A stretch of 32,000 nt of DNA, taken from Candidatus Saccharimonadota bacterium (GTDB taxonomy: Bacteria; Patescibacteriota; Microgenomatia; UBA1406; GWC2-37-13). The stretch covers positions 570,001-602,000 of the forward strand of contig CP064967.1 in assembly GCA_016699265.1 (NCBI GenBank), read 5' to 3'. The translations under genes were made by a program, and so were the position numbers. Every line of letters begins with the position of its first letter. Position 1 is the stretch's first letter. The notes below the pieces were generated by a model. It was not told where the DNA came from. It searched no databases and saw only the letters and a list, made by a program, of their open reading frames with translations. This document shows, one piece after another, positions 157 through 30,378 of this stretch.

Positions 157-2919
157 TTAATTTGGGTAATGACAACGCTTGTACTTCTTTCCTGAACCGC
201 AGTGACATGGATCATTTCTACCCGGTTTACCCTTGACCGCCGTAGCTTTAGCGACGGCTGGCTTGCTCGACGTTTTAGCTTTCGCCTTTGGCTCAGCAAA
301 CTGAGCAGTCTCAACAGGACCGGAAAGTACTAATTCTTTTCGCCCAGAGGGCGATCCCCCTTTGGGGGATTCTTGCCCAGCCGCATGAATATGCTCATGC
401 GCTTCGATCTGAACACTGAACATTCTTCTGGTTGCCTCGAAGTACATTCCCTGAATTAATCTCTCAAATAACTTAAAGGCCTCATTTTTATATTCAGCAA
501 GTGGCTGCACATTCGCATATCCCCTCAGACCAATCCCCTGTCTAAGGTCGTCAATTGAGCTAAGATGTTGAGAGAAGTACATATCTATCACCGATAGAAA
601 TATGAATCTAACAACGCCACGCCAGACACCATTGCTTGTCTCTTTTTCACGTTTTGCGTACTCCTTTTTTGCAGTAGAAACCAAGTAGTCTCGAAGACCC
701 GTCTGGTTACGCTCCTCAATAAAGGTTTGAACAGTCTTCTCTGAAACAGGAAGTAACAATCTAAGCTCTCGAAGTGTCGTTGAATTCATCTCGGCAGTCT
801 CATTGCCCAAATCAAAAGTAAACATGTTCGAGTGCATCTCAAGCTGCTCATCCACAACCGCAAGGATAGTTTCTTTGAAGGCACTATCGTCCTTATCTGC
901 CTGCATGAGAATGTTTCTTCTCAGGTCATAGATAATTTCACGTTGCTTGTTCAATACGTCGTCGTACTCAACCGTATTTTTTCTCATGTCAAAGTTTCTT
1001 CCCTCGACCTTTACCTGAGCTTGTTCAATTGCTTTAGTTACCATTGAGTGAGTGAGTGGTTGGTCCTCAGGAAGATTAAAGAAGGTCATGAGCTTTGCAA
1101 TCTGTTCACCACCAAAAATTCTCATGAGATCGTCTTCAAGCGAGACGAAGAATCTTGACTCACCAGGATCACCTTGACGACCAGCTCTACCTCTGAGCTG
1201 ATTATCAATTCTTCTGGACTCATGGCGCTCGGTTCCGATAATGTATAAACCACCTAACTCGAGAACTTTTTTATGCTCATCATCCCACCCTCCTCCAGAG
1301 GAGGATCCCCCTTTGGATGTCTTTCTAACGTCCTTTTCTTTAGTCTTTAGATTTGCATCAGGATCTCCTCCTAAGATAATATCAACTCCTCGTCCAGCCA
1401 TATTCGTTGCAACTGTAACTGCATTGATTCTTCCGGCAGAGGCTATAATCTGAGCTTCCTGTTCATGATTTTTTGCGTTGAGAAGATTGTGCTGAATTCC
1501 TCTTTGTCTCAACATCTTTGACAATAGCTCATTCTTATCAATTGAGGTGGTACCTATGAGAACCGGTCGACCAGTCTTGTTAACCGCAGCTACTTCCTCA
1601 ACAACTGCCTTAAATTTGCCAATTTCAGTTTTGTAGATAAGATCCGATTCATCCTTTCGAATCATGTTGTTATGAGTCGGCACAATGAGAATCTCGCAGC
1701 CGTATATCTTGTGAAACTCTTCAGCTTCCGTCGCTGCAGTTCCGGTCATTCCAGAGAGGATTGCGTACTTTCTAAAGTAGTTTTGAAGGGAAATAGTTGC
1801 GAGAGTTTTCGATTCCTTTTGAATTGGCTGTCCTTCTTTTGCCTCAACTGCCTGGTGAATTCCTTCTGACCAGCGTCGACCGTACTGGAGTCTTCCGGTA
1901 AACTCATCAACGATGATTATTTCTGCGTCTTTTACAATGTAGTCCTTCTCTTTCTTAAATAAAGTCTCGGCCTTCAATGCCGCCTCAAGATGAAATACTG
2001 CCTCGAAGTCCTTCTCATATAAATTATCTATGCCAAGCATCTTCTCGACTTTTGAAAGCCCTTTTTCGGTCATATTTGCCGATCTCTCCTTTTCATCAAC
2101 TACATAGTCCTCTGGCTGAAGTTTCTTTACCACCTGTGCATACTGATAGTACCTCGAGGTGTCCTCTTCATTTGGGGCTGAAATTATATGAGGGGTTCGT
2201 GCTTCATCAATAAGAACGGAGTCCGCCTCATCAATAATCGCAAAGTAGTACCCTCGTTGGCGAAGCTCTGCAGGATCCTGGACCATATTATCTCGAAGAT
2301 AATCAAAACCAAACTCACTGTTGATTCCGTATGTAATGTCTGCAAGATATGCTTCTCGTCGAGCAACTGGCTTCAGATGTTGTAGTCTCCAGTCTGTAGT
2401 ATTTTCGTCGTTATACTTCGCATCGTAGATAAAGGATCTTTCAGATATGTTCGCAGAGGTGGTCATTCCAAGAAAGTTAAAAACACCACCCATCCATCCT
2501 GCATCGCGTCTTGCGAGATAGTCATTGACCGTAACTAAGTGGGAGCCTTTCCCGGTTAATGCATGAAGGTAGAGCGCAGTAGTTGCTGAGAGCGTCTTTC
2601 CTTCTCCTGTTTTTTGCTCGGTAATCTTTCCGTCAGAAAGTGCAAGTCCTGCCATGAGCTGAACATCAAAATGTCTTATCCTAAGGACTCTTCGAGCGGC
2701 TTCCCTCACCAGTGCGAACGCCCAGGGACGAACCTCTTTTAGTACCTCAGGAGAACCTTTGGAGACTTTTTCTTTGAGCTTCTCAGTTTCCTTTATAAAA
2801 TCGCTGTCCTTAAGTTTTCGTGCCTTCTCATCCAACTCATTAATCTGTGCAACAACTATCTTATATTCATCGATTTGCTTCTGGTTGTAGTCTAGGAATT
2901 TTTTGAAAAAGTTAAGCAT
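157..2919 (-). CDS. secA: Preprotein translocase ATPase SecA
   Basis: 920-aa ORF with SecA motor motifs (TGEGKTL, MAGRGVDI, GTERHESRRIDNQLRGRAGRQGDPG) and the C-terminal zinc-binding tail CHCGSGKKYKRCH. Confidence 0.97.
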   Translation of the reverse strand: MLNFFKKFLDYNQKQIDEYKIVVAQINELDEKARKLKDSDFIKETEKLKEKVSKGSPEVLKEVRPWAFALVREAARRVLRIRHFDVQLMAGLALSDGKITEQKTGEGKTLSATTALYLHALTGKGSHLVTVNDYLARRDAGWMGGVFNFLGMTTSANISERSFIYDAKYNDENTTDWRLQHLKPVARREAYLADITYGINSEFGFDYLRDNMVQDPAELRQRGYYFAIIDEADSVLIDEARTPHIISAPNEEDTSRYYQYAQVVKKLQPEDYVVDEKERSANMTEKGLSKVEKMLGIDNLYEKDFEAVFHLEAALKAETLFKKEKDYIVKDAEIIIVDEFTGRLQYGRRWSEGIHQAVEAKEGQPIQKESKTLATISLQNYFRKYAILSGMTGTAATEAEEFHKIYGCEILIVPTHNNMIRKDESDLIYKTEIGKFKAVVEEVAAVNKTGRPVLIGTTSIDKNELLSKMLRQRGIQHNLLNAKNHEQEAQIIASAGRINAVTVATNMAGRGVDIILGGDPDANLKTKEKDVRKTSKGGSSSGGGWDDEHKKVLELGGLYIIGTERHESRRIDNQLRGRAGRQGDPGESRFFVSLEDDLMRIFGGEQIAKLMTFFNLPEDQPLTHSMVTKAIEQAQVKVEGRNFDMRKNTVEYDDVLNKQREIIYDLRRNILMQADKDDSAFKETILAVVDEQLEMHSNMFTFDLGNETAEMNSTTLRELRLLLPVSEKTVQTFIEERNQTGLRDYLVSTAKKEYAKREKETSNGVWRGVVRFIFLSVIDMYFSQHLSSIDDLRQGIGLRGYANVQPLAEYKNEAFKLFERLIQGMYFEATRRMFSVQIEAHEHIHAAGQESPKGGSPSGRKELVLSGPVETAQFAEPKAKAKTSSKPAVAKATAVKGKPGRNDPCHCGSGKKYKRCHYPN
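340..370 (-). repeat. In-frame 30-nt double-hairpin element, copy 1 (encodes SPKGGSPSGR in the SecA C-terminal linker)
   Basis: Plus strand CGCCC-AGA-GGGCG (341-353) directly followed by ATCCCCC-TTT-GGGGGAT (354-370). 26/30 identical to the carB copy, and all 4 differences are compensatory stem pairs. Confidence 0.8.
1291..1318 (-). repeat. In-frame double-hairpin element, copy 2, partly decayed (encodes SKGGSSSGGG in a SecA surface loop)
   Basis: TCCTCC-AGA-GGAGGA (1291-1305), then ATCCCCC-TTT-GG..AT (1305-1318). The second 3' arm lacks GGG, an in-frame 3-nt loss. Hairpin 1 has a third stem sequence that still pairs. Confidence 0.65.
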
Positions 2920-4207: not shown

Positions 4208-5051
4208 AGAAAAAGCGAATTAACTACCTTGGGGATTGTATCAAGGATATCTGAGTTATTATACCAGTATCCTCTATCTAAAAAAAGAGCCTCGGCTGTT
4301 TTCTTAAGAATATATGAGGAACACACGCAGCTAGATACAGGATCAGAATGAGTGGTTAACCCTGCAACCAGACCGGCAAGAATGTCACCTGTTCCGCCTT
4401 TGGTAAGACCTTGATTACCACCGTCGATCAGTATCACATCTTTCCGTCGGAAACGAAGTCGGTTATCGCCTTCAGGAGAATAATGCAATGGTACTTCGAG
4501 GCCATCTCCTGAACTACCTTTGCCTTTTCCTCTGTAGATTTATCGGTTATCGAAATCCCAAAGAGCTGTTCGAATTCCTGTTGGTGAGGGGTGACAATGG
4601 CCGGCCTCTTAAGCGTTGCAAGCATCTCCGGCTTCATCATCTGCAGAGATCCTGCATCGATAACAAGCTGCTTGTTCTGTGCTTTGAGAAGAACACGTTT
4701 CGTAAGTTTTTTAGTCTCGTCATTTCGCTCCAGACCTGGCCCAATCAAAATCACGTCGTCCTCAGTTAAATAAGCATCGAGTTGATCTCGATGAACGACA
4801 ATGCCATTTCTAAACTTGGTTTTAAGAGACAAAAAGATCTCATTATTCTCTTCCGTAGAGCAGTAATGCACCATGTCTGCAAAATGCGAGACAACTTCCG
4901 CGGACCACAACGAAGCGGAATGAAATAACTGCGATCCTCCAATAATAAGCACCTTTCCATTTTGACCTTTATGGCTATTTTGCTCAGGTAGATTGATCTT
5001 GCTAAGGAATGTTTGGATGCCTTCTAGTGAGTCTGTACTGACGGTTTTCAA
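4204..5051 (-). CDS. nnrD: ADP-dependent NAD(P)H-hydrate dehydratase (YjeF C-terminal domain type), with one apparent frame break
   Basis: Fragments 4434..5051 and 4204..4488 together give HKGQNGKVLIIGGS ... VTPHQQEF ... ILLKAITDFVSDGK|DVILIDGGNQGLTKGGTGDILAGLVAGL. They join with a 1-nt correction at T-run 4441-4443. TTG start. Confidence 0.8.
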
Positions 5052-5158: not shown

Positions 5159-6959
5159 ATGATGACTCATTTAGAGCTTAGGAAACAGTTTAAGAACTTC
5201 TGGGAAAGCAAAGGACATAAAGAGGTGCCGCCAATCCCGCTCGTTCCACAGAACGATCCAACCACTCTCTTTACTGGATCCGGCATGCAGCAGCTCGTGC
5301 CAAATCTTCTAGGGGAACCCCACCCTTTAGGAACCAGACTTTACAACGCTCAACGCTCATTCAGATCGCAGGATATTGAAGAGATCGGAGACAACCGACA
5401 CACCACGATGTTTGAAATGATGGGTAACTGGTCGCTAGGCGACTACTTCAAGGAGGAACAGCTCTCTTGGTTTTATGAATTTCTTACAAAGCAACTTTCA
5501 TTACATTCTGAAAATCTCCATGTGACAATTTTTAAGGGCGGCTCTGGTGTTCCTCAGGATCTAGATTCAAAGAATATTTGGCTGAAGCTTGGCATTTCCG
5601 AGGATCGAATATATGAATATGATGATAAGAAAAACTGGTGGTCTCGTGCTGGTTCCATTACCAATATGCCAGTCGGTGAGATTGGCGGACCGGACTCCGA
5701 GGTATTCTTTGAGTTCAAACAGGTAGTCCATGATCCTGCCTTCGGTGAGAACTGTCATCCGAACTGTGACTGCGGAAGATTCCTAGAGATCGGCAACAAT
5801 GTTTTTATTCAGTACAAGAAAGAAGAGAACGGCTCCCTCACCGAACTTCCAAGTAAAAATGTGGACTTCGGAGGCGGTCTCGAAAGGCTCCTTGCTGCAG
5901 CAAATAATAACCCGGATGTTTTCCAGACCAACGTCTTTATTTCGATTATTCAATTAATCGAAGCAATCACCGGAAGAAAATACAGTGACCCTGCTGCACA
6001 AAACAGATTCGTGTTATCGCGGACCATATTAAGGCGGCGGTCTTTCTCATCAAGGATGGCGTTCGACCTCAAACAAAGAACAAGGATATGTGCTCCGTAG
6101 ACTTCTGCGAAGATCGGCAGTAAAGTATCGATCTTTGGTAAGTGCGTTTAATCCTGCAGATATCGCTAATGTTGCCAAGGGCGTAATCGATACGTACGAG
6201 GGAATTTACTTCGATGGTAAGGTCGATACTCCCGAGATTTCATCGTTTATTAAAGATGAGATGGATCGCTTCGGAAAAACGCTTGAGAAGGGACTTCGAG
6301 AAGCAGAGAAAATACAACAGATCGATGGTTCAAAGGCCTTTGATCTCTATCAGACCTTTGGCTTTCCTCTTGAAGTTACCGAAGAGTTGTTTAAAGAAAA
6401 GGGACAGAATATTGACCATGTTCAGTTTAGGACTCAGTTTGATAAACATAAGGATCTTTCTCGATCTGCATCTGCAGGTAAATTCAAGGGAGGTCTTGCC
6501 GACCACTCGGATCAAGTTCTTAAATACCATACTGCAACTCATCTTCTCCATCAGGCGCTGTTTGATGTATTTGGAAATGATGTTCGTCAGGAAGGGTCGA
6601 ACATCACCGGCGAACGTCTCCGATTTGATTTTTACTGCAAGATAAAACCTACAGAGGAACAAACTAATAAAATTGAGTCAATTATTAATGAAAAAATTAT
6701 GGAAGCTCTCCCGATGCGTTTTAAGCTCATGCAAAAAGAAGATGCTCTAAAGGTCGGCGCTCGTTCATTTTTTAGGGAAAAGTACCCAGATCAGGTTAAG
6801 GTATATTATATAGGAGGCACCGATGACCAACCCGAGACGGCTTACTCAAAGGAGTTCTGTGGAGGACCTCATGTGAAAAACACAAAGGAGATTGGATCGC
6901 TCACAATCTTTAAACTCGAAACAATCGGAAGCAACCTATTTCGAATATATGCGAAGTAA
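5159..6959 (+). CDS. alaS: Alanyl-tRNA synthetase, short form (catalytic, tRNA-recognition and editing domains, no C-Ala domain), with two apparent frame breaks
   Basis: HTTMFEMMGNWSLGDYF and the GGGLERL core. The stretch QIRVIADHIKAAVFLIKDGVRP is readable only in the third frame, between A-run 6000-6003 and about 6067-6069. Then SNKEQGYVLRRLLRR follows, and editing motifs HTATHLLHQAL and CGGPHV. Track fragments are 5159..6100 and 6090..6959. Confidence 0.9.
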
Positions 6960-9175: not shown

Positions 9176-11500
9176 TCTGGGTAGATAGAGAAGTTAAAAA
9201 ATCAAAGAACTCAACCTTCCACAGGTGTGGATCGATGATATGAAGACGCCATCTGGTCGTGTGCATGTTGGCGCTCTTCGTGGTGTTGTGATTCACGATC
9301 TTTTATATAAAGCTTTTACCGAGCAGGATGATGATGTGAATTTTAGCTATGTCTTCAACAACATGGATCAGATGGATGCTATTCCCTCATACCTTGACTA
9401 TGAGAAATGGGAAAAATATGCAGGAATGCCTCTTTACAAAATTCCATCACCAGAACAAGGATTTGCTAACTTTGCAGAGTTCTATGCTAAGGAGTTTATA
9501 ACGGTTTTTGAATCAATCAACTGCCATCCGAAAATCATCTGGTCATCGGACCTATATGAGTCTGGTAAGATGAATGACGTTATTCGAGAAGCTCTCGACA
9601 AAGCAGCTAAAATCAGAGAACTCTACAAAACGATCTCAAAATCTGTGAGGCCTGACAACTGGTATCCATTTCAAATAATCTGTGAGAACTGTGGAAAAGT
9701 TGGAACAACTTCTGTTACGGGTTGGGATGGAACAAATGTTACCTATGTCTGTAATCCTGAGATGGTAGCCTGGGCAGAGGGATGTGGTAACAAGGTTCTA
9801 GAAGTCCATTCGATGGAAATGGCAAACTTCATGGAAGGTGGACTGGCCAGCACATTGGAAAAAATTGGCGTAACTATTGAAGGATCTGGAAAGATCATAT
9901 GTCTGCTGGAGGCTCGTACGACCTCTCATCATCGATAGCACGTGAGGCTCTTGGTTACGAAGCACCGTACGCACCCGCATATGAATGGTTTACAATAGGT
10001 GGGGCAAAAATGTCCTCTTCAAAAGGAATTGGAACCTCGGCAAAGGACGCTGCTGCAATTCTACCTCCCGATATCTTAAGATTTTTACTCGTGCGAACTC
10101 CTATCGAACGGTCTATTGACTTCAATCCCTTTGGAGATACTATTCCAAATATCTTCGATGACTACGATCGCTGTTTTTCTGCTTACTTTGACAAACTAGA
10201 AAATAAAGTACCAGAAGGTAAACAAGGCGAGGTAATTGAGGACTTTGCACGAATTGCAGAACTTTCACAGGTTAGACCTCTCCCAATGACAAGAATGTTT
10301 CTGCCAAGATTCAGAACTATCGTTAATCTTTTAAAAACGAGAGTTGAGATACTTGAATTTTTTGAAAAACAAAAAGGATCCGCATTAAATGATTATGAAA
10401 AAGAACTACTTGAGGAAAGAATAATTTACGCAGAAGGATATCTCAAAGCCTACGCAGAGGATGCGGATAAGGTAGAGCTTCTCGAGTCATTACCTGACGG
10501 TCTTGCACTTACCGAAAGTCAAAAAACGTTCTTACAGCTTCTCGGCACCGAACTTAAAAAACTAGCGACCGATGATAGAATGGCAATTCAGGACATTGTT
10601 TTTACAATTCTAAAAGAAAATAATCTTCAGGCTAAAGAAGTTTTCAAGGCATTTTATCAGATCCTTATTGGTAAGGAGTTCGGACCCAAGGCAGCAGATC
10701 TCATACTTGAGTTTGGTGTGAAAACAGTAATCTCTCGAATCGACAAAGTATTTGAGGAAAAAAATATTGATCATCCCGATAAGATAGATTCACTCTTCCC
10801 TATCTTAAAAGACTCTGACCTTTTTTCCATCGACGATTCAGTTCTTAGCAAATTCTCGTCTATTACTGTCGGAGTTGCAGTAATCAAGGGAGTAACGATA
10901 GGTAAATCGCCTCCTGAACTACAGAAGGAGATCGACGATTTTCTAACTCAGATGGGCATCCTTACTACAGAAATGATAAGTAGTTATCCTGAGATAAAAA
11001 GCTACCGAAAGCTATATAAGGCTACCGGTGTCGACTGGCATTCTCGAAGGCCATCACCTGAAGCCTTGCTCAGACGCTACGCCTTAAAAAAGGAGATACC
11101 GTCTATTAATTCATGTGTCGGTGCCTATAACCTGATCGTGATGAAACATAGAATTTCTGTTGGAGCGTTTGATCTTGATCAATTAAGTCTACCGACGATA
11201 CTTAGATTTGCAAAGGAAGGCGAGGATATTCATTTACTTGGGGATGTAGAGCCAACTAAGTATGGGGCAGGTGAATTGGCCTACTTCGATCAGCTCGGGG
11301 GATACAATATTGATTTTAATTACCGCGACTCCAAGCACTCAGCCGTTACTGAAAGAACGAGAGATATCTTAATAAATACGGAGGGTGTATTCGACATATC
11401 TCCAAAGCAGGTTGAGCAAGTGTTGAAGGAGACGATTGAGATTATCACAAAGTACTGTGGTGGTACCGTAGAGAAGGTCGGCATCGTCACCGAAACTTGA
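9172..11500 (+). CDS. lysK: Class I lysyl-tRNA synthetase fused to a C-terminal B3/4 (PheRS-beta-like) domain, with five apparent frame breaks
   Basis: Reconstructed product: MIWVDREVKK|IKELNLPQVWIDDMKTPSGRVHVGALRG ... GCGNK|GSRSPFDGNGKL|WKVDWPAHWKK|IGVTIEGSGK|DHMSAGGSYD ... KMSSSKG (KMSKS-type). Corrections are needed near 9196-9201, 9792-9795, 9830, 9859-9864 and 9893. The last ~230 aa match the solo B3/4 family pattern (RPSPEALLRRYALKKEIPSINSCVGAYNLIVMKHRISVGAFDLD). Confidence 0.85.
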
Positions 11501-17001: not shown

Positions 17002-20000
17002 CTACTTTTTCTGTTCAAATAGGGTTAGGATGTTTGGCGTTTTGTTTTCCTGTATTTTATGAATAACTCGTGTGTGGACACCACTACTTTTTAAAAATTT
17101 GTGAGTATTGGCTGTCGCAAATATCGGAATTCCCATTTGCTTCAGACGGAATGCTGTTGTAAATATTGACATTTTATTTTCCATACCATTTACAGTTAAA
17201 AATACACCTATGCGAGGGGCTCGCTCTCCAACACTTAATATAGCTTTATAAAATGCTTCATATACATCGTCCCCAAATGCAGCGGCCTCACCGGTTGAGG
17301 ACATCTCTACGTGAAGAACCGGATCTGCGCCATTAAGCTTGGCAAATGAGAATTGCGCAGCTTTCACAAGAACATGCTCTGGCGGTAAAATCTGAACTTT
17401 TTACCGTTATTATAATAGGCATCAACTATTGTTCTTGCGAAGTTATGAGAGGTTCCTCTTGATATAAAGGGGAAAGTGCGGGATGCTCTCGCATTCATCT
17501 CGATGATAAACACGTCGCTGCTAAGTCCTAAAAACTGCATATTAAATGGTCCAGTTATGTTAAGCTTTTTAACGAGTTTCTCAGCATTTGTCATAATTCG
17601 TTTTTCTGTAAGGAGATAGACCCGCTGAGCGGGATAAATAATAGAGGCGTCTCCAGAATGTACACCTGCATCCTCTACATGTTCGCTGAGTGCGCTTACC
17701 AAAATCTCACCATTTTGAGCTACTCCATCTAGCTCAATCTCTTTTGCATACATGAAGAACTTAGAAATTGCGATTGGATGTTCTTTCCCAAGAATTGTTG
17801 CTTTTGTAATATATGTTTCAAGTTCTTCCGCAGTGTTACATACGCTCATTGCGGCTCCTGAGAGAACGTATGAAGGTCGTATCAATACCGGAAACTTAAC
17901 TTTTGTAGCAAACACCACTGCATCTTTCATAGAGTTCACCTTTCGCCATGATGGCTGCTGAATTCCAAGATCATCGCATAGTGCGGAAAACTTCGTTCTA
18001 TCCTCGACCATATCGATTTGTTTTGGTTGAGTTCCAAGAATATGAACACCTTCTCCTGCGAGCTTTTGCAAAATATTATGTGGCGCCTGACCTCCCACTG
18101 ATGCGATTACTCCTTGAGATTTCTCAAATTCGTAAATATCGGTCACGCTTTCGAATGTTAGTTCTTCAAAATAAAGTCGGTCTGACATGTCGTAGTCGGT
18201 AGATACAGTCTCTGGATTACAGTTGATGATGATTGATTTTTTATGATATTTCTTTAAAGCCAATGCTGTATTTACACAAGTCCAGTCAAATTCTACAGAC
18301 GAGCCAATTCTGTACGGACCTGACCCCAACACCATCACTCCTTGTTTTCCTAACGGATCAACATCATGATGCGCACCGTTATATGTGAGATAAAGATAAT
18401 TTGTTTTTGCCGGAACCTCTCCTGCCAATGTATCTACACGAAACACAGATGGACGTATACCCAACTTCTTTCTCAACGATCTTATATTGCTTTCTGTTTT
18501 TTTTACCACTTTTCCAATACGTCTATCAGAAAAGCCAAGCTCTTTGAGATTGAGCATCGTCTTCTTTTTATTTATCTTTCTTGCCTGCGCTCTCAGCTTC
18601 TTCTCAGTAAGAACTATGTTCTCAATTCTGTAGAGAAACCAAGGATCGATACCAGTTAGCTTATGTACTTTCCCAACGGTAAAATTTTTCTTGAACGCTT
18701 CAACAAGAGCAAATAATCTTCTTGTTGTTGGCGTTGTAAGATGATGTATTAATTCCTTCCCCGTTTCTGGTGTGCGGTAGTCTGTGATTCCATCACGACC
18801 AAGATCGAGCATTCGAACTGCTTTTTGTATAGCCTCTTCAAACTTTCTTCCAATTGCCATCACCTCTCCTACCGACTTCATACTTGATCCAAGCTTGTTT
18901 TCCACACCTCTAAACTTTTCGAGATCCCAACGAGGAAGTTTAACTACGAGATAGTCCAGTGCTGGCTCGAAGAACGCTTTTGTTACCTGAGTCACTTTAT
19001 TATCAATCTCTATTAGTGATTTTCCTAAAATGAGTTTGGCTGCAATATATGCGAGAGGGTATCCGGTTGCCTTTGATGCTAAGGCTGAAGATCTGGACAG
19101 ACGTGGATTAAGTTCGATTACGTAGTATTCAAGTTCTTGCTGTGGATTTCGACCAGAGGTCGATCGCCCTTTGGGCGATAGCGCAAACTGCACATTACAC
19201 TCTCCGACAATGTTGAGACTACGAACAATTTGTATAGCTACTGCACGAAGATGATGATACTCAAAGTTTGTGAGAGTCTGACTAGGAGCAACAACAATTG
19301 AGTCGCCTGTATGAATTCCCAATGGATCCATATTCTCCATATTACAAACAGCCACACAGTTGTCATAACTATCCCTCACAATCTCGTACTCAATCTCCTT
19401 AAAATGATGAAGATACTTCTCGATTAAAACCTGGGGTGAGAATGCAAAGACTTCCTTAATCATTTTTTCAAACTGCGTCTTGTCATGGGCTACTCCCGAC
19501 TTCTGTCCGCCAAGGGCAAATCCAGCTCGTATCATAATCGGAAATCCTATTTGCTTAAGTGCTGTTCTAGCAGAATCGATTGACGAAACGGCAATACTGT
19601 TTGGAGTAGGAACATTCATTCCATGCAGGTGTTTAGAAAAAAGCTTTCTGTCTTCTGAGATACTTATTGATGGGACAGAAGTGCCCAGCACCTCTACGTT
19701 ATACTTTTCAAATACTCCTTTCTTGCCAAGATTCATTGCGCAGTTTAAGGCAGTCTGTCCTCCAAACGATAGAGCTATAGAGTCAACTTTTTCTTTTTTT
19801 ATTATCTCTTCGACAAAGTGATCGTTAATTGGGAGGTAGTAGACCTTATCTGCCAGTCCTTCAGACGTTTGGTAAGTTGCAATGTTAGGATTTATCAGTA
19901 CTACTTTGTGTCCCTCTTCCTTAAAGGCCTTAATTGCCTGTGAACCTGAGTAATCAAACTCGCCTGCCTGTCCAATTTTCAATGCGCCTGACCCTAAAAG

Positions 20001-20024
20001 TAAAATTTTTCTATTTTTTTTCAT
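17002..20024 (-). CDS. carB: Carbamoyl-phosphate synthase large subunit, with one apparent frame break
   Basis: Two ATP-grasp halves (GSGALKIGQAGEFDYSGSQA; GSGPYRIGSSVEFDW; NPRLSRSSALASKATGYPLA). Fragments 17364..20024 and 17002..17367 join as NNGKKVQILPPEHVLVKAAQFSF if one T is added to run 17398-17402. Confidence 0.95.
19149..19179 (-). repeat. In-frame 30-nt double-hairpin element, copy 3 (encodes SPKGRSTSGR inside CarB)
   Basis: CGACC-AGA-GGTCG (19150-19162) then ATCGCCC-TTT-GGGCGAT (19163-19179). It interrupts the conserved NVQFAL|NP..VIELNPR segment. Confidence 0.8.
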
Positions 20025-28218: not shown

Positions 28219-30378
28219 TTATGGATAAAGCAGTCTTAACTTAATGTTGTTCGAGAACGGAGGTAGAATATTCTTAAATAAAGCAATTGGATGTTCAACC
28301 ACAAACTCCACACTTTGGGCATGATACCTATCTTTTGCAAGCTCCTGTAAAGCGCTAGTAGTCTTCCCTACCATCGAGCTTATCATTTCCTTTTCACCAT
28401 CGGGTGGCACTGCGCGCACTGTCGCTTTGATTAAAAGCTGAGTGACTCCATTTTTATTAGTAACACTGAGTATCTTGTAACTCAAATTTTTAGACTCAAC
28501 TACCAATCCTTTTTGAACCTTTGGCAGTAGTACCTTGATTAAGGAGAGCTTCAGTTTTTCTTTGCTTACATATGAATAAGTAACTACAACTTCTGCCTTC
28601 ACGGTTACCGACTCCGCCTCCGTCCCAACCGCCTTGTCAGCATTTTTGGACTGAATATCAATACCAGTTAAGGAACTGAGAAGTAATGCGTCTGAAGTGA
28701 GAGACTTTGCCACCTTATCTTTTGCAAACTGACGTGCTTTCTCTTTAATCTGCTCCTCAGATTTAGCTATATCTTTGTCCGAAACTACCTGGATCTGAGT
28801 TTTGGTACCTCCAGTAAAACTGCCATCATTCTTTGCTATTACAGATGAACCGGATTCATCGGCAACCGAAAATTTAGTACCTGAAGCAAGGTTTGATTCT
28901 GGTCCAATTACAGATGCTGTCACTGCAGACTTAACGGTACTAGACACAATATCTGCCGCATCTCCTGATGCAGAGGCTATTTTGACATCGGCATCAAGTG
29001 TAAAAGAAAGGTTTCCTGGTCCATTAATTACGGTGCCCTTGGAAAAGTTTTTACCCTGACTTAGACTACTGTTGTAGATAGTTACGGTACCTTTTGCAGG
29101 TTGCCCTATATTCTTTATTCCTGTGGCTGCTACCCGAGTGTCAAATTTAGCCGTTTCTGTCGCTACCAAAATGCCTACTGCGGTCGCATCAAACGATTTT
29201 GAAATCTCAAGTTTTTGGGACGGCAAAGTCATCGTGATAACGGCAGTATGCAGATTTAATTCCATTAAAAATGCGCCTATTAGAATAAGTAATATACCGA
29301 TAATTATTGAAGAATGTATAAAAAGTCTTCTGGACCGGAAAACCTTCAGCTTACTTAAGTGGGTAGAAATCTCAGAAAACTTCAGAAGAGCAGATCGTAC
29401 TAAACTCTCTACTGGGTTTCTGAATGCCGATTTTAGTAACTCTGATCGGCTTACTTCTTCTGAGTCTTCTCGATCTACTCCACCTATCTCAAATCCCATA
29501 CGTTCAGAAATGGTCGAGGTTGGAGCGCTTCTCGCTTCAGGTATATTTGTAGACTGGTCGAGCGCAAGTTCTTCGTCTAAATCTCCATCTTCAGATCCTT
29601 CAAGCTCACTCTTATTTTCCTGTCTCTGTGTAGGGCGATCCATTGGGACAGTTTGCATCTGTGTAGCGAAGGCATAAACAAGACCCTTTATCATATTGTC
29701 CTCAGTGGCGAGTGTAATGGAAGGTTGATGATTGAAGAGCCTGTCGTCCCAGGTATGCTCGACAAGATCTGCTCCCTCCTGATGATCTGTTGATGGAAGC
29801 ATAACTATTCGCGATGGAAGTACGTGACTTTCCTTAATCGATGCTAAGGTCTCGTTAAGGTCGTGGAGAAAGCTTTTCTTTCTCATTGTAGAAACCTGAG
29901 CTATGAGTTTTCCTGATTGATATATAAAAACAGTAAGGTTAGTCCGATCTGATTCTATTAGGAGTGCTGTTAACCCTTGATGATCTTTATCAAATAGATA
30001 CTTTAAATATGCTTCATGTACCTCTATGAATCCCATAGGTTTGAGCTCCATACTTTTTACAAGATTTTTAATGCTAGATAAATGTTGCTTCTTCAACTCA
30101 TGAGTTTCTGGTTCTACCAGATGCGAGTAAACAAAGAAGATGATATCATCAAAGGTTTTTTTAGTTCTTACCTCAAGTTTATACAAAGCATCGTCAACAT
30201 CATCTGCAAGATGATCCCATCTATTTGTTAGCGTAAACTTTTCGCTGTCAATCTTCACTAGATTTGAAGAATCCGAGTCTGACTCTAGGTACATAATTAC
30301 GCCATCGTTTTCACGAAGGAGAAGACCTATAAATCCTTTACTAGTTTTTTTTAAAAACGAAAACGGATTAAGGTTCAT
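28219..30378 (-). CDS. Hypothetical bitopic membrane protein (cytoplasmic N-domain, acidic linker, one TM helix, beta-rich extracellular C-domain)
   Basis: 719-aa ORF with an acidic linker (ELEGSEDGDLDEELALD), a TM helix (SSIIIGILLILIGAFLMEL), and a repetitive V/T/S-rich C-terminal half. It vaguely recalls baseplate-J-like domains annotated in CPR genomes, which I did not verify. Confidence 0.7.
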   Translation of the reverse strand: MNLNPFSFLKKTSKGFIGLLLRENDGVIMYLESDSDSSNLVKIDSEKFTLTNRWDHLADDVDDALYKLEVRTKKTFDDIIFFVYSHLVEPETHELKKQHLSSIKNLVKSMELKPMGFIEVHEAYLKYLFDKDHQGLTALLIESDRTNLTVFIYQSGKLIAQVSTMRKKSFLHDLNETLASIKESHVLPSRIVMLPSTDHQEGADLVEHTWDDRLFNHQPSITLATEDNMIKGLVYAFATQMQTVPMDRPTQRQENKSELEGSEDGDLDEELALDQSTNIPEARSAPTSTISERMGFEIGGVDREDSEEVSRSELLKSAFRNPVESLVRSALLKFSEISTHLSKLKVFRSRRLFIHSSIIIGILLILIGAFLMELNLHTAVITMTLPSQKLEISKSFDATAVGILVATETAKFDTRVAATGIKNIGQPAKGTVTIYNSSLSQGKNFSKGTVINGPGNLSFTLDADVKIASASGDAADIVSSTVKSAVTASVIGPESNLASGTKFSVADESGSSVIAKNDGSFTGGTKTQIQVVSDKDIAKSEEQIKEKARQFAKDKVAKSLTSDALLLSSLTGIDIQSKNADKAVGTEAESVTVKAEVVVTYSYVSKEKLKLSLIKVLLPKVQKGLVVESKNLSYKILSVTNKNGVTQLLIKATVRAVPPDGEKEMISSMVGKTTSALQELAKDRYHAQSVEFVVEHPIALFKNILPPFSNNIKLRLLYP

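Follow-up and report, generated by a model that had tools for sequence, protein, structure and literature searches.

What is a 30-nucleotide (nt) pair of perfect hairpins doing inside carB, the gene for the large subunit of carbamoyl-phosphate synthase (CPS), where it is translated as ten extra residues? The question is raised by a 32,000-nt stretch of DNA from a Candidatus Saccharimonadota bacterium (assembly GCA_016699265.1, contig CP064967.1, positions 570,001 to 602,000 of the forward strand), here called the window, in which a first-pass annotation had described the segment as an insertion with clean boundaries inside a conserved motif of CarB. Our analysis indicates that the segment is probably a translated solo copy of a non-autonomous element, here called EL, that is tied to tRNA-targeting GIY-YIG cassettes. 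The insert and its two units lie as follows.

19149 to 19178, minus strand: the EL copy in carB, two 15-nt units, identified by a covariance model of the family (48.7 bits, E value 1.3e-14) and by its fold as single-stranded DNA (ssDNA).
19178 to 19164, minus strand: unit 1, TCGCCC-AAA-GGGCGA, encoding SPKGR.
19163 to 19149, minus strand: unit 2, TCGACC-TCT-GGTCGA, encoding STSGR.

Read in the sense of carB, the 30 nt are TCGCCCAAAGGGCGA|TCGACCTCTGGTCGA. Both units are perfect hairpins (6/6 pairs each) with a 6-bp stem, a 3-nt loop, T...A ends and CC/GG beside the loop, and they abut at GA|TC to give CGATCG; the loops come in the order AAA then TCT, as in the 121 family pattern matches described below. 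The codons, TCG CCC AAA GGG CGA TCG ACC TCT GGT CGA, are in phase 0 and stop-free, and they place the decapeptide SPKGRSTSGR between ...ECNVQFAL and the universal NP of CarB. The protein reading of the first-pass annotation, NVQFAL-[SPKGRSTSGR], is thus borne out by coding-strand sequence and frame, and the ends it gave (TCG at the start, TCGA at the end, CGATCG at the hairpin junction) are all seen. Its interval of 19149-19179 was right to within one base, but 19179 lies one base past the 30-nt EL and merely extends one stem by an A-T pair. In shuffled windows this 30-mer, or one with up to three mismatches, is expected 0.00 times. Folded as ssDNA, the segment forms exactly two hairpins at -11.2 kcal/mol, compared with -5.4 for shuffles (z = -3.0). 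A sensitive Rfam scan around 19050-19280 gave no match at E ≤ 10, and a scan of the whole window gave a single match, to one tRNA.

We searched for further copies with the pattern TCNNCCAAAGGNNGATCNNCCTCTGGNNGA, which has 22 specified bases and eight free N positions, in one genome per species (596 Gb). At least 120 loci matched, where by our own estimate about 0.07 would be expected by chance, and EL is widely distributed: the matches listed come from many Patescibacteria classes, Ignavibacteria, Bacteroidota, metagenome-assembled genomes (MAGs) of Gammaproteobacteria, Elusimicrobia, Omnitrophota, Zixibacteria, Planctomycetota, Verrucomicrobiota, Kiritimatiellia, Melainabacteria, Margulisiibacteriota, KSB1 and others, all of them in MAGs or single-amplified genomes (SAGs). 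A search of 2.9 million viral contigs returned one EL match only, and carriage by phage was rejected on that ground. With the N positions left unconstrained, both hairpins pair 6/6 in 97 of the 121 matches listed, through compensatory changes; their stems include TCCGCC (64), TCAGCC (27), TCGGCC, TCTGCC, TCGTCC and TCCCCC. In an alignment of 45 distinct sequences, 97% of cells were paired and the covariation score was 0.311, compared with 0.063 for shuffles, none of which reached it (0/500); the signal was gone when the 3′ partner columns were slid by 1-3. The anatomy of EL is that of two tandem 15-nt units of the form T-C/G-NN-CC-loop-GG-N'N'-G/C-A, with loops that are usually AAA then TCT and a join at GA|TC.

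The flanks of the matches listed follow the logo T(66%) T/C | EL | A(66%) A(86%) A(54%), and direct repeats are absent. The CarB copy, flanked by CTA^AAT and likewise free of a repeat, fits this T/A-rich, TTY^RAA-like junction. Seventy-five of the listed matches fall within stretches of 100 or more codons without a stop, and they occupy every frame and both orientations: 38 are read in sense frame 0 (SAKGGSASGG), 12 in sense frame 2 (PPKADPPLAE), 9 in antisense frame 0 (SARGGSAFGG), 8 in antisense frame 2 and 8 in frame 1. Since 30 nt keeps the frame, a genic EL is simply read through. Variants that place TGA in frame 0 occur in other frames or between genes, and among the matches listed there was no case in which splicing or bypass of an in-frame stop would be needed.

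Some individual loci deserve mention. EL sits at the same point of a conserved ...LYQNYPNPF^N... C-terminal motif in large, secreted-looking proteins at L111 and L127 (also L033, L080 and L088), a motif that resembles a type IX secretion system (T9SS) sorting domain. The elements there lie in opposite orientations across genomes (SAKGGSASGG versus SARGRSAFGG), which argues for independent insertions at one TTY^AAY target. Locus L089 (4043-4116) carries two double ELs 14 nt apart in different frames of one long open reading frame (ORF; SAKGGSASGGKDQKSPPKADQP). At L101, identical ELs at 5528-5557 and 5878-5907 stand 350 nt apart with repeated flanks in a locus that also holds GIY-YIG gene fragments; this pair looks like a local tandem duplication that included the EL.

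The surroundings of the family members point to tRNA genes. An EL unit lies within 130 nt of a tRNA gene at 17 or more of the 120 listed EL loci, where we estimate that about 2 would be expected, and at these loci the element is often inside a partial duplicate of the neighboring tRNA, at the D-loop (GCGCCTGTAGCTCAATT^GGATAGA in L091, GGGCCCATAGCT^CAATGG in L102) or the T-loop (GGTTC^GAATCC in L069, GGGTTC^AAATCCC in L044). Clean excision of double ELs in silico restored a whole tRNA in 0 of 131 cases; EL as a tRNA intron was therefore rejected, and the tRNA-embedded copies lie in tRNA fragments rather than in intron-bearing tRNAs. All-against-all clustering of the ORFs at these loci showed that small GIY-YIG ORFs of ~80-100 amino acids (aa) adjoin ELs, and 6 of 6 aligned examples matched PF01541.

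The converse test was made on metagenome contigs searched with one GIY-YIG protein (PF01541), which yielded 80 loci, 43-78% identical to it and chosen without regard to hairpins; because one protein was the query, these loci sample one sub-family. A tRNA lies within 400 nt of the GIY-YIG gene at 70 of the 80, always on the same strand, and usually ends 19-30 nt before the start codon or begins 2-34 nt past the stop. Near the gene, 63 kb contain 101 perfect hairpin units, compared with 10 in the 258 kb far from it, an enrichment of about 41-fold. The covariance model found ~52 sites at E < 0.01 in 36 loci, of which ~3 are farther than 450 nt from the gene. Between 24 and 27 of the 38 best of these sites read exactly (A)GGTTC^EL^GAATCC, i.e., EL within a tRNA T-loop, in both orientations. 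At 59 of 77 loci the nuclease gene is flanked by exact direct repeats, 14 nt or longer, that derive from a tRNA. In L140, L142 and L069, the order of the cassette is the 5′ part of the resident tRNA (...GGTTC), EL, GAATCC, a spacer, an intact copy of the tRNA with the GIY-YIG gene before or after it, GGTTC, EL, GAATCC, and the 3′ end of the resident tRNA with its terminator. The main home of the family is the T-loop, less often the D-loop, of tRNA-gene fragments that bracket cassettes of a GIY-YIG gene and an intact tRNA. Single units (TCCGCC-TTA-GGCGGA and TCCGCC-TGC-GGCGGA) also occur beside GIY-YIG genes at the anticodon-arm position of tRNA-like sequences (L140, 2784-2798; L171; L207-L209), some of which ARAGORN calls tRNA-Ala(tgc) with a non-canonical loop; these sequences may be pseudo-tRNAs or may hint at the origin of the unit.

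When the 32-kb window was searched with a covariance model trained on family members, three sites were recognized, all on the minus strand and sense to the host gene. Besides the carB copy, two lie in secA.

157 to 2919, minus strand: secA, an ORF and the host of two EL copies.
340 to 369, minus strand: EL copy 2, in the secA C-terminal region, TCCCCCAAAGGGGGA|TCGCCCTCTGGGCGA, encoding SPKGG-SPSGR in frame, 49.3 bits.
1291 to 1320, minus strand: EL copy 3, in mid-secA, ACATCCAAAGGGGGA|TCCTCCTCTGGAGGA, encoding TSKGG-SSSGG in frame, 29.6 bits, with the 5′ arm of unit 1 damaged.

Every member of the species cluster has both secA copies, and 39 of the 39 nearest SecA relatives, including those at 87% identity, lack them. 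The mid-secA copy is an exact 30-nt insertion between AAG and GGG, and the empty site is seen at the DNA level in L130 (AAG AAA AAA^GGT TGG), from which it follows that the insertion comprises exactly 30 nt without target duplication. The window also contains four more perfect TC-N4-N3-N4'-GA hairpins within ORFs (584-598, 9584-9598, 30107-30121 and 30200-30214); these were rejected as EL copies, being AT-richer, read in phase 2 and missed by the family model. TC...GA hairpins in the window, the five true units included, number 9, where 0.61 are expected, and the other four represent a mild excess.

To what extent the carB copy interrupts a conserved part of the enzyme was judged from homologues and structure. 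Across 120 homologues, the segment of CarB from ECNVQFAL to (I/L)(D/E)YYVIE(L/V)N(P/A)R varies between 4 and 60 residues and nearly always begins with NP. The E. coli motif that the first-pass annotation had quoted is correct by the 1bxr/1ce8 alignment, and its loop has 6 residues (NPKNGR); in the alignment with human CPS1, an 11-residue gap faces the insert. In an AlphaFold2 model of intact CarB (mean predicted local distance difference test score, pLDDT, of 82; predicted template-modeling score, pTM, of 0.84), the loop is flanked by beta strands 274-282 and 300-306, and residues 283-299 are modeled as coil, with pLDDT below 50 at 288-295. As modeled, EL occupies the first position of the disordered stretch linking two core strands in the first ATP-grasp domain. 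The proposal that it lies inside a conserved motif is therefore not sustained, given the range of loop length in the homologues and the coil of the model. That the segment is an insertion and not an ancestral linker does hold, since the closest EL-free relatives have instead NPKPPKGME (P0002, 88%), NPKPPKGTD (P0003, 84%) and NPRAVKNKQ (P0005, 81%), but the site is a variable loop and not the ATP-grasp core; alignment and structure alike place it at the start of this variable, disordered loop. The same comparison bears on whether all orthologues might share a comparable loop: the closest relatives do not, while many distant ones have unrelated long inserts at this place.

Directly 3′ of EL, the remainder of the loop is as follows.

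19134 to 19148, minus strand: AAT CCA CAG CAA GAA (AATCCACAGCAAGAA), encoding NPQQE.

Removal of exactly 30 nt leaves this loop of 5 residues, which is within the family range. The restored spacing that had been claimed for this removal is consequently found in that broad sense, but not to the residue, as the closest relatives have 9 residues and E. coli 6. The window has 45 nt (EL plus AATCCACAGCAAGAA) where its sister sequences have the 27 nt of an NPKxxKxKx loop, so that the restoration is only approximate. Unrelated inserts of up to 60 aa occupy the same loop in further Patescibacteria (P0009, P0027, P0060, P0084, P0093, P0103 and others), some of them Arg/Pro/Gly-rich or internally repetitive (e.g., SPLLRGVPRRGEV and TGPVSP motifs); possibly the CarB loop is a general insertion hot spot for other small elements as well.

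We further compared the insert among CarB relatives, where it is polymorphic. In a neighbor-joining tree, the window protein (P0001) groups with P0002 and P0003, and P0004 pairs with P0005, with P0007 in the same clade. P0001, P0004 and P0007 carry the insert; their sisters P0002 and P0005 lack it. The loop of P0004 reads SPKGR SPSGR NPQQE, with hairpin 1 nucleotide-identical to that of the window and hairpin 2 pairing 4/6; that of P0007 reads SPKGR LNSNR NQKLN, with both hairpins decayed by substitution and the length kept. Between the window and L002, which belongs to the other CarB clade, the 45-nt patch is identical at 41 of 45 nt and at 12 of 14 codons, compared with 42% gene-wide, and the synonymous sites just outside the patch differ. 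In unit 2 of the window, a compensated A-T pair joins positions 4 and 12, and L002 has uncompensated third-position changes. An ancestral insert lost several times was rejected because the 9-residue NPKxxKxKx loop of the EL-free relatives is also found in outgroups. The history of the CarB insert is one of repeated acquisition at one site or of very short tract transfer, not of simple vertical descent. Taken together with the secA sites and the family flanks, these data show that EL is gained by exact insertion of 30 nt, without duplication, in either orientation and with a TTY^RAA-like preference, and that genic copies are read through and then decay neutrally.

The genes around carB agree broadly in having L004 closest to L001, the contig that matches the window. 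Nearest relatives conflict among the neighbors compared (SerRS, IMPDH and GreA): for L001, SerRS is 82% identical to L003 and 69% to L004, and IMPDH is 90% identical to L004 and 73.5% to L003. To judge from these sequences, the conflicts indicate recombination among these Microgenomates lineages. L003 has a Y1_Tnp gene (PF01797, IS200/RAYT-like) at 4233-4889 between the PBP and SerRS genes, which is absent there from L001 and L004. A gene of the 23S_rRNA_IVP/bAvd family lies directly upstream of carB in L004 (9590-9958), L005 (6962-7330) and L129 (104-493); in L004 and L005 it stands between carA and carB, and it is absent in the window lineage.

Since carB itself is broken in the window assembly, we also asked whether gene and insert are sound.

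17364 to 20024, minus strand: carB, the host of EL, ending at residue 886 through a 1-nt deletion in an A-run.
17002 to 17367, minus strand: the continuation of carB in another frame, a 121-aa ORF closed by a second 1-nt deletion in an A-run.

The intact gene encodes 1074 aa in P0001/L001, a Joint Genome Institute (JGI) metagenome contig that is 99.5% identical to the window and has the same 30-nt insert. P0001 contains the CPSase_L_D1/D2/D3 and MGS domains of Pfam, with two ATP-grasp halves, the oligomerization region and an MGS-like region, and the similarity to solved CPS structures is full-length, with scores of 942 bits against human CPS1 (5dot) and 737 bits against E. coli CarB (1bxr); this Patescibacteria CarB thus scores higher against the human mitochondrial enzyme than against E. 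coli CarB. The alignment of the window with L001 has 14 gap openings across 16.5 kb, and the two ORFs result from single-A deletions in A5/A6 runs near ~17402 and ~17010. This suggests that the carB frameshifts are homopolymer-length errors of the window assembly and not the mark of a true pseudogene. As only 2 of the 15 carB substitutions between window and L001 alter the protein, the insert-bearing gene is under purifying selection. The decapeptide in its context (SPKGRSTSGRNPQQELE) is found in 13 of the 13 site-covering members of the 90%-identity CarB protein cluster. Insert-bearing members come from NCBI, JGI, Logan and ENA assemblies, with listed contig counts summing to more than 30, and their sources are labeled Microgenomates group/Candidatus Woesebacteria (Patescibacteria). 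By these independent assemblies the insert is real DNA and not an assembly chimera.

How would a copy such as that in carB arise? We propose that the GIY-YIG nuclease makes breaks at T-loop-like sites or at the foot of extruded hairpins, its predicted substrate being duplex tRNA-gene DNA (GGTTCGAATCC), empty or with EL. Structure specificity is a property of bare GIY-YIG domains of the SLX1 type. Into such a break, EL would be copied or ligated from a cassette junction; its insertion would split the T-loop target, and it would act as a cassette end or as a target-disrupting insert. Copies landing elsewhere would represent occasional off-target events at T-loop-like junctions and at short T-T-Y^R-A-A-like sites, and within genes those in tolerant loops and tolerable frames would persist. 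In carB, EL would have entered between Leu and Asn codons (CTA^AAT CCA), where a hypervariable and presumably surface-exposed loop begins, with a right flank resembling the 3′ half of a T-loop, and would since have become fixed in this Microgenomates/Woesebacteria-like species. The patches common to several lineages may reflect repeated insertion or short-tract gene conversion, with point decay in one lineage, and short co-conversion in break repair would account for the 45-nt patch across CarB clades. The empty CarB sites, CTA^AAC CCA in L004 and L006 and CTC^AAT CCA in L129, resemble TTC^(A/G)AATCC. Mimicry of the T-loop was rejected as a general targeting rule, as flanks of the (A/G)A(A/T)TCC type occur in 8 of 120 listed solo copies; for the CarB site itself (AATCCA) it is a weak lead from the sequence, and an AAYCC right flank is also present at some other sites, not generally and not in secA.

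Several observations weigh against the link of the carB copy to the GIY-YIG cassettes. A GIY-YIG ORF is present in merely ~9 of the 120 listed EL loci, and most solo ELs have no cassette within 8 kb. The window and its fetched relatives (L001-L007, L129-L131) contain no GIY-YIG gene and no EL-bearing tRNA fragment, so that for this genome the nuclease link is made by family membership only; the CarB copy is solo, without physical association with a cassette, and the association is strong at the level of the family. The window stems TCGCCC, TCGACC, TCCCCC and TCCTCC are rare family variants among the matches listed, and the secA targets, AAG^GGG and GAA^AAA, are unlike the T-loop. Some of the near-gene units counted at the GIY-YIG loci are anticodon-arm positions of tRNA-like sequences, and the covariance-model count is the cleaner one. 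No insertion model explains simply a 45-nt patch across CarB clades whose immediate flanks are divergent. For the proposed nuclease, site specificity would not be obvious either, as a bare GIY-YIG domain of ~80 aa appears to have no domain for DNA binding.

These points must be set against what other explanations can account for. EL could be a neutral indel with no mobility machinery, spread by recombination or transformation, its palindromes kept perfect as template switching corrects quasi-palindromes. The 45-nt patch common to the CarB clades does resemble short-tract gene conversion, the neighboring genes are mosaic (e.g., SerRS, 82% to L003 and 69% to L004), and the A-T pair in window unit 2 is compensated while the L002 changes are not. 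We nevertheless hold this to be unlikely, because it leaves unexplained the near-identical 30-mers in unrelated genes of many phyla, the exact 30-nt insertions in secA and the roughly 40- to 50-fold concentration at GIY-YIG/tRNA cassettes. Somewhat less probable still is an ssDNA hairpin element like the repetitive extragenic palindromic (REP) sequences or IS200/IS605, moved in trans by an HUH (Y1) transposase (RAYT/TnpA). Such an origin would fit an element whose hairpins, with their stem covariation, are the sole conserved cis feature, which shows no target-site duplication and weak 5′-flank specificity, and whose orientation within ORFs is biased (53 sense and 22 antisense among the matches listed); the relative L003 moreover has an inserted Y1_Tnp gene. 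Y1_Tnp relatives are found, however, at 1 of 120 listed EL loci, on which count the link to this transposase was rejected, and no model matches lie near the L003 gene. EL has no tag of the GTAG/CGTC type, is largely intragenic and occurs in both orientations in the same T-loop target, unlike a strand-specific ssDNA insertion, and the strong association found is that with GIY-YIG genes and tRNAs.

Selection by the host for a signal, such as a protein-binding or uptake sequence, a translation-slowing mRNA structure or a processing site, would make EL something other than selfish DNA. Conservation of structure by covariation would be expected of such a signal, as would a hairpin 1 that is nucleotide-identical in the window and L002 amid saturated synonymous sites. 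The copies nevertheless are found in every frame and on either strand, and also between genes and within pseudo-tRNA fragments, their density in the window is merely 3 per 32 kb, the L003 copy has decayed with its gene retained, and Rfam gave no match; we regard a host signal as improbable. Even less credence is due to a low-complexity S/P/K/G/R linker that evolved in place, with coincidental palindromes or local slippage, although the loop is hypervariable and P/K/G-rich in relatives, with NPKPPKG in P0002 and P0003 and CCC AAA GGG in L006. Selection on the peptide would not be expected to yield two perfect 6-bp hairpins in ten codons, and the same 30-nt architecture recurs twice in secA and at 120 or more further loci, so that membership in the family effectively refutes the linker. 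That the segment is an artifact of assembly or sequencing is hardly conceivable: homopolymer indels do occur in the window assembly (of 14 gap openings in 16.5 kb, two disrupt carB) and all listed family matches come from MAGs or SAGs, but the same insert appears in many independent assemblies from four sources, diverged and decayed versions stand at the orthologous carB site in other species, and copies within ORFs keep the reading frame. A solo copy of a non-autonomous, cassette-linked EL thus remains the explanation that we favor.

A broader proposal, which we put forward tentatively and consider somewhat doubtful, is that EL is a mobile or att-like module of an unrecognized, cross-phylum class of selfish elements, in which a bare GIY-YIG nuclease with a spare tRNA targets T- and D-loops, and the hairpin pair marks the cassette junctions and is sprinkled into TTY^RAA sites genome-wide. 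The chance that EL marks a categorically new mobile system is, in our judgment, about one in three. We found no description of the EL DNA, its encoded peptides or the GIY-YIG/tRNA/hairpin cassette in the searchable literature, a scope outside which most subscription journals lie, so that a prior description is possible; the family is widespread and apparently undescribed.

The family would explain the odd 10-residue S/A/P/K/G inserts (SAKGGSASGG, PPKADPPLAE and SARGGSAFGG) in conserved MAG proteins, which disturb alignments and annotation. If the reading is true, in-frame selfish DNA of the Rickettsia type would span phyla and not one genus, and EL would be smaller than any bacterial transposable or homing-associated element known so far and would continually supply 10-residue insertions to essential proteins in Patescibacteria and in further uncultured lineages. 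It would also tie a tiny hairpin element to abundant small GIY-YIG genes beside tRNA genes, whose function is, to our knowledge, uncharacterized. The result would be a testable system in which an ~80-aa nuclease is paired with a 30-nt substrate and a T-loop as its defined target, a possible new route to the duplication, replacement and pseudogenization of tRNA genes, and the identification of a CarB loop that tolerates arbitrary insertions.

Among known systems, REP elements resemble EL in being short, non-autonomous, GC-rich and palindromic, in their many copies and in stems that covary within a family. REP/REPIN sequences with RAYT (PMC3733652) are short GC-rich palindromes of 20-40 nt, present in many copies, which are extragenic, carry a GTAG/CGTC tag and depend on a Y1 (RAYT) gene. 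EL shares none of these last three features, being intragenic and untagged, with Y1_Tnp relatives at 1 of 120 listed loci. Like MITEs (miniature transposable elements with inverted repeats), EL is a short non-autonomous repeat that may descend from a parent element with genes of its own or rely on one. The terminal inverted repeats of MITEs match a parent insertion sequence (IS), and these elements duplicate their target and measure 50-500 bp; EL, in contrast, has 30 nt, no duplication and no IS parent, and at the carB site and at secA site 1 there is no duplication and the palindromes are internal to each unit. As mentioned in PMC10085805 and PMC2800124, the double-hairpin elements, or repetitive hairpin-forming elements, of fungal and sponge mitochondria are similarly tiny pairs of adjacent GC-rich hairpins, dispersed in AT-richer genomes and thought to be mobile. 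As described there, they differ in being organellar, mostly intergenic or intronic and of other sequences, with no link to a nuclease/tRNA cassette reported for them.

The gene 60 insert of phage T4 protects its gene from homing-endonuclease cleavage. The homing systems of this phage resemble the EL cassettes in having a small nuclease gene beside tRNA genes, duplicated tRNA segments at the borders, a short hairpin insert that splits a conserved target (for EL, the T-loop) and short co-conversion-like patches, such as the 45 nt in CarB. SegB of T4 is a free-standing GIY-YIG homing endonuclease in the tRNA region (PMC2330249), and in the mobA/gene 60 cassette, a homing endonuclease is accompanied by a 50-nt hairpin insert that lies in an essential gene (10.1101/2022.08.31.505936). 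In the EL cassettes, by comparison, the nuclease appears from its sequence to be a bare GIY-YIG domain of ~80 aa, the genomes are cellular, and the 30-nt repeat is dispersed and is translated rather than bypassed; the nuclease gene adjoins EL at the T-loop members of the family, not at the CarB copy.

The closest functional analogue of the CarB copy is the Rickettsia palindromic element (RPE). As summarized in PMC10969869 (after Ogata et al. 2000), RPEs are of ~100-150 bp, are confined to Rickettsia and encode family-specific conserved peptides. As there described, they are palindromic selfish repeats that lie in frame in unrelated housekeeping genes, are translated at tolerant sites and are patchy among related species, which is how EL behaves as well. 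EL differs from RPEs in its length of 30 nt, its two 15-nt hairpins, its spread over many phyla and its concentration at tRNA/GIY-YIG loci, and the two have no sequence relationship.

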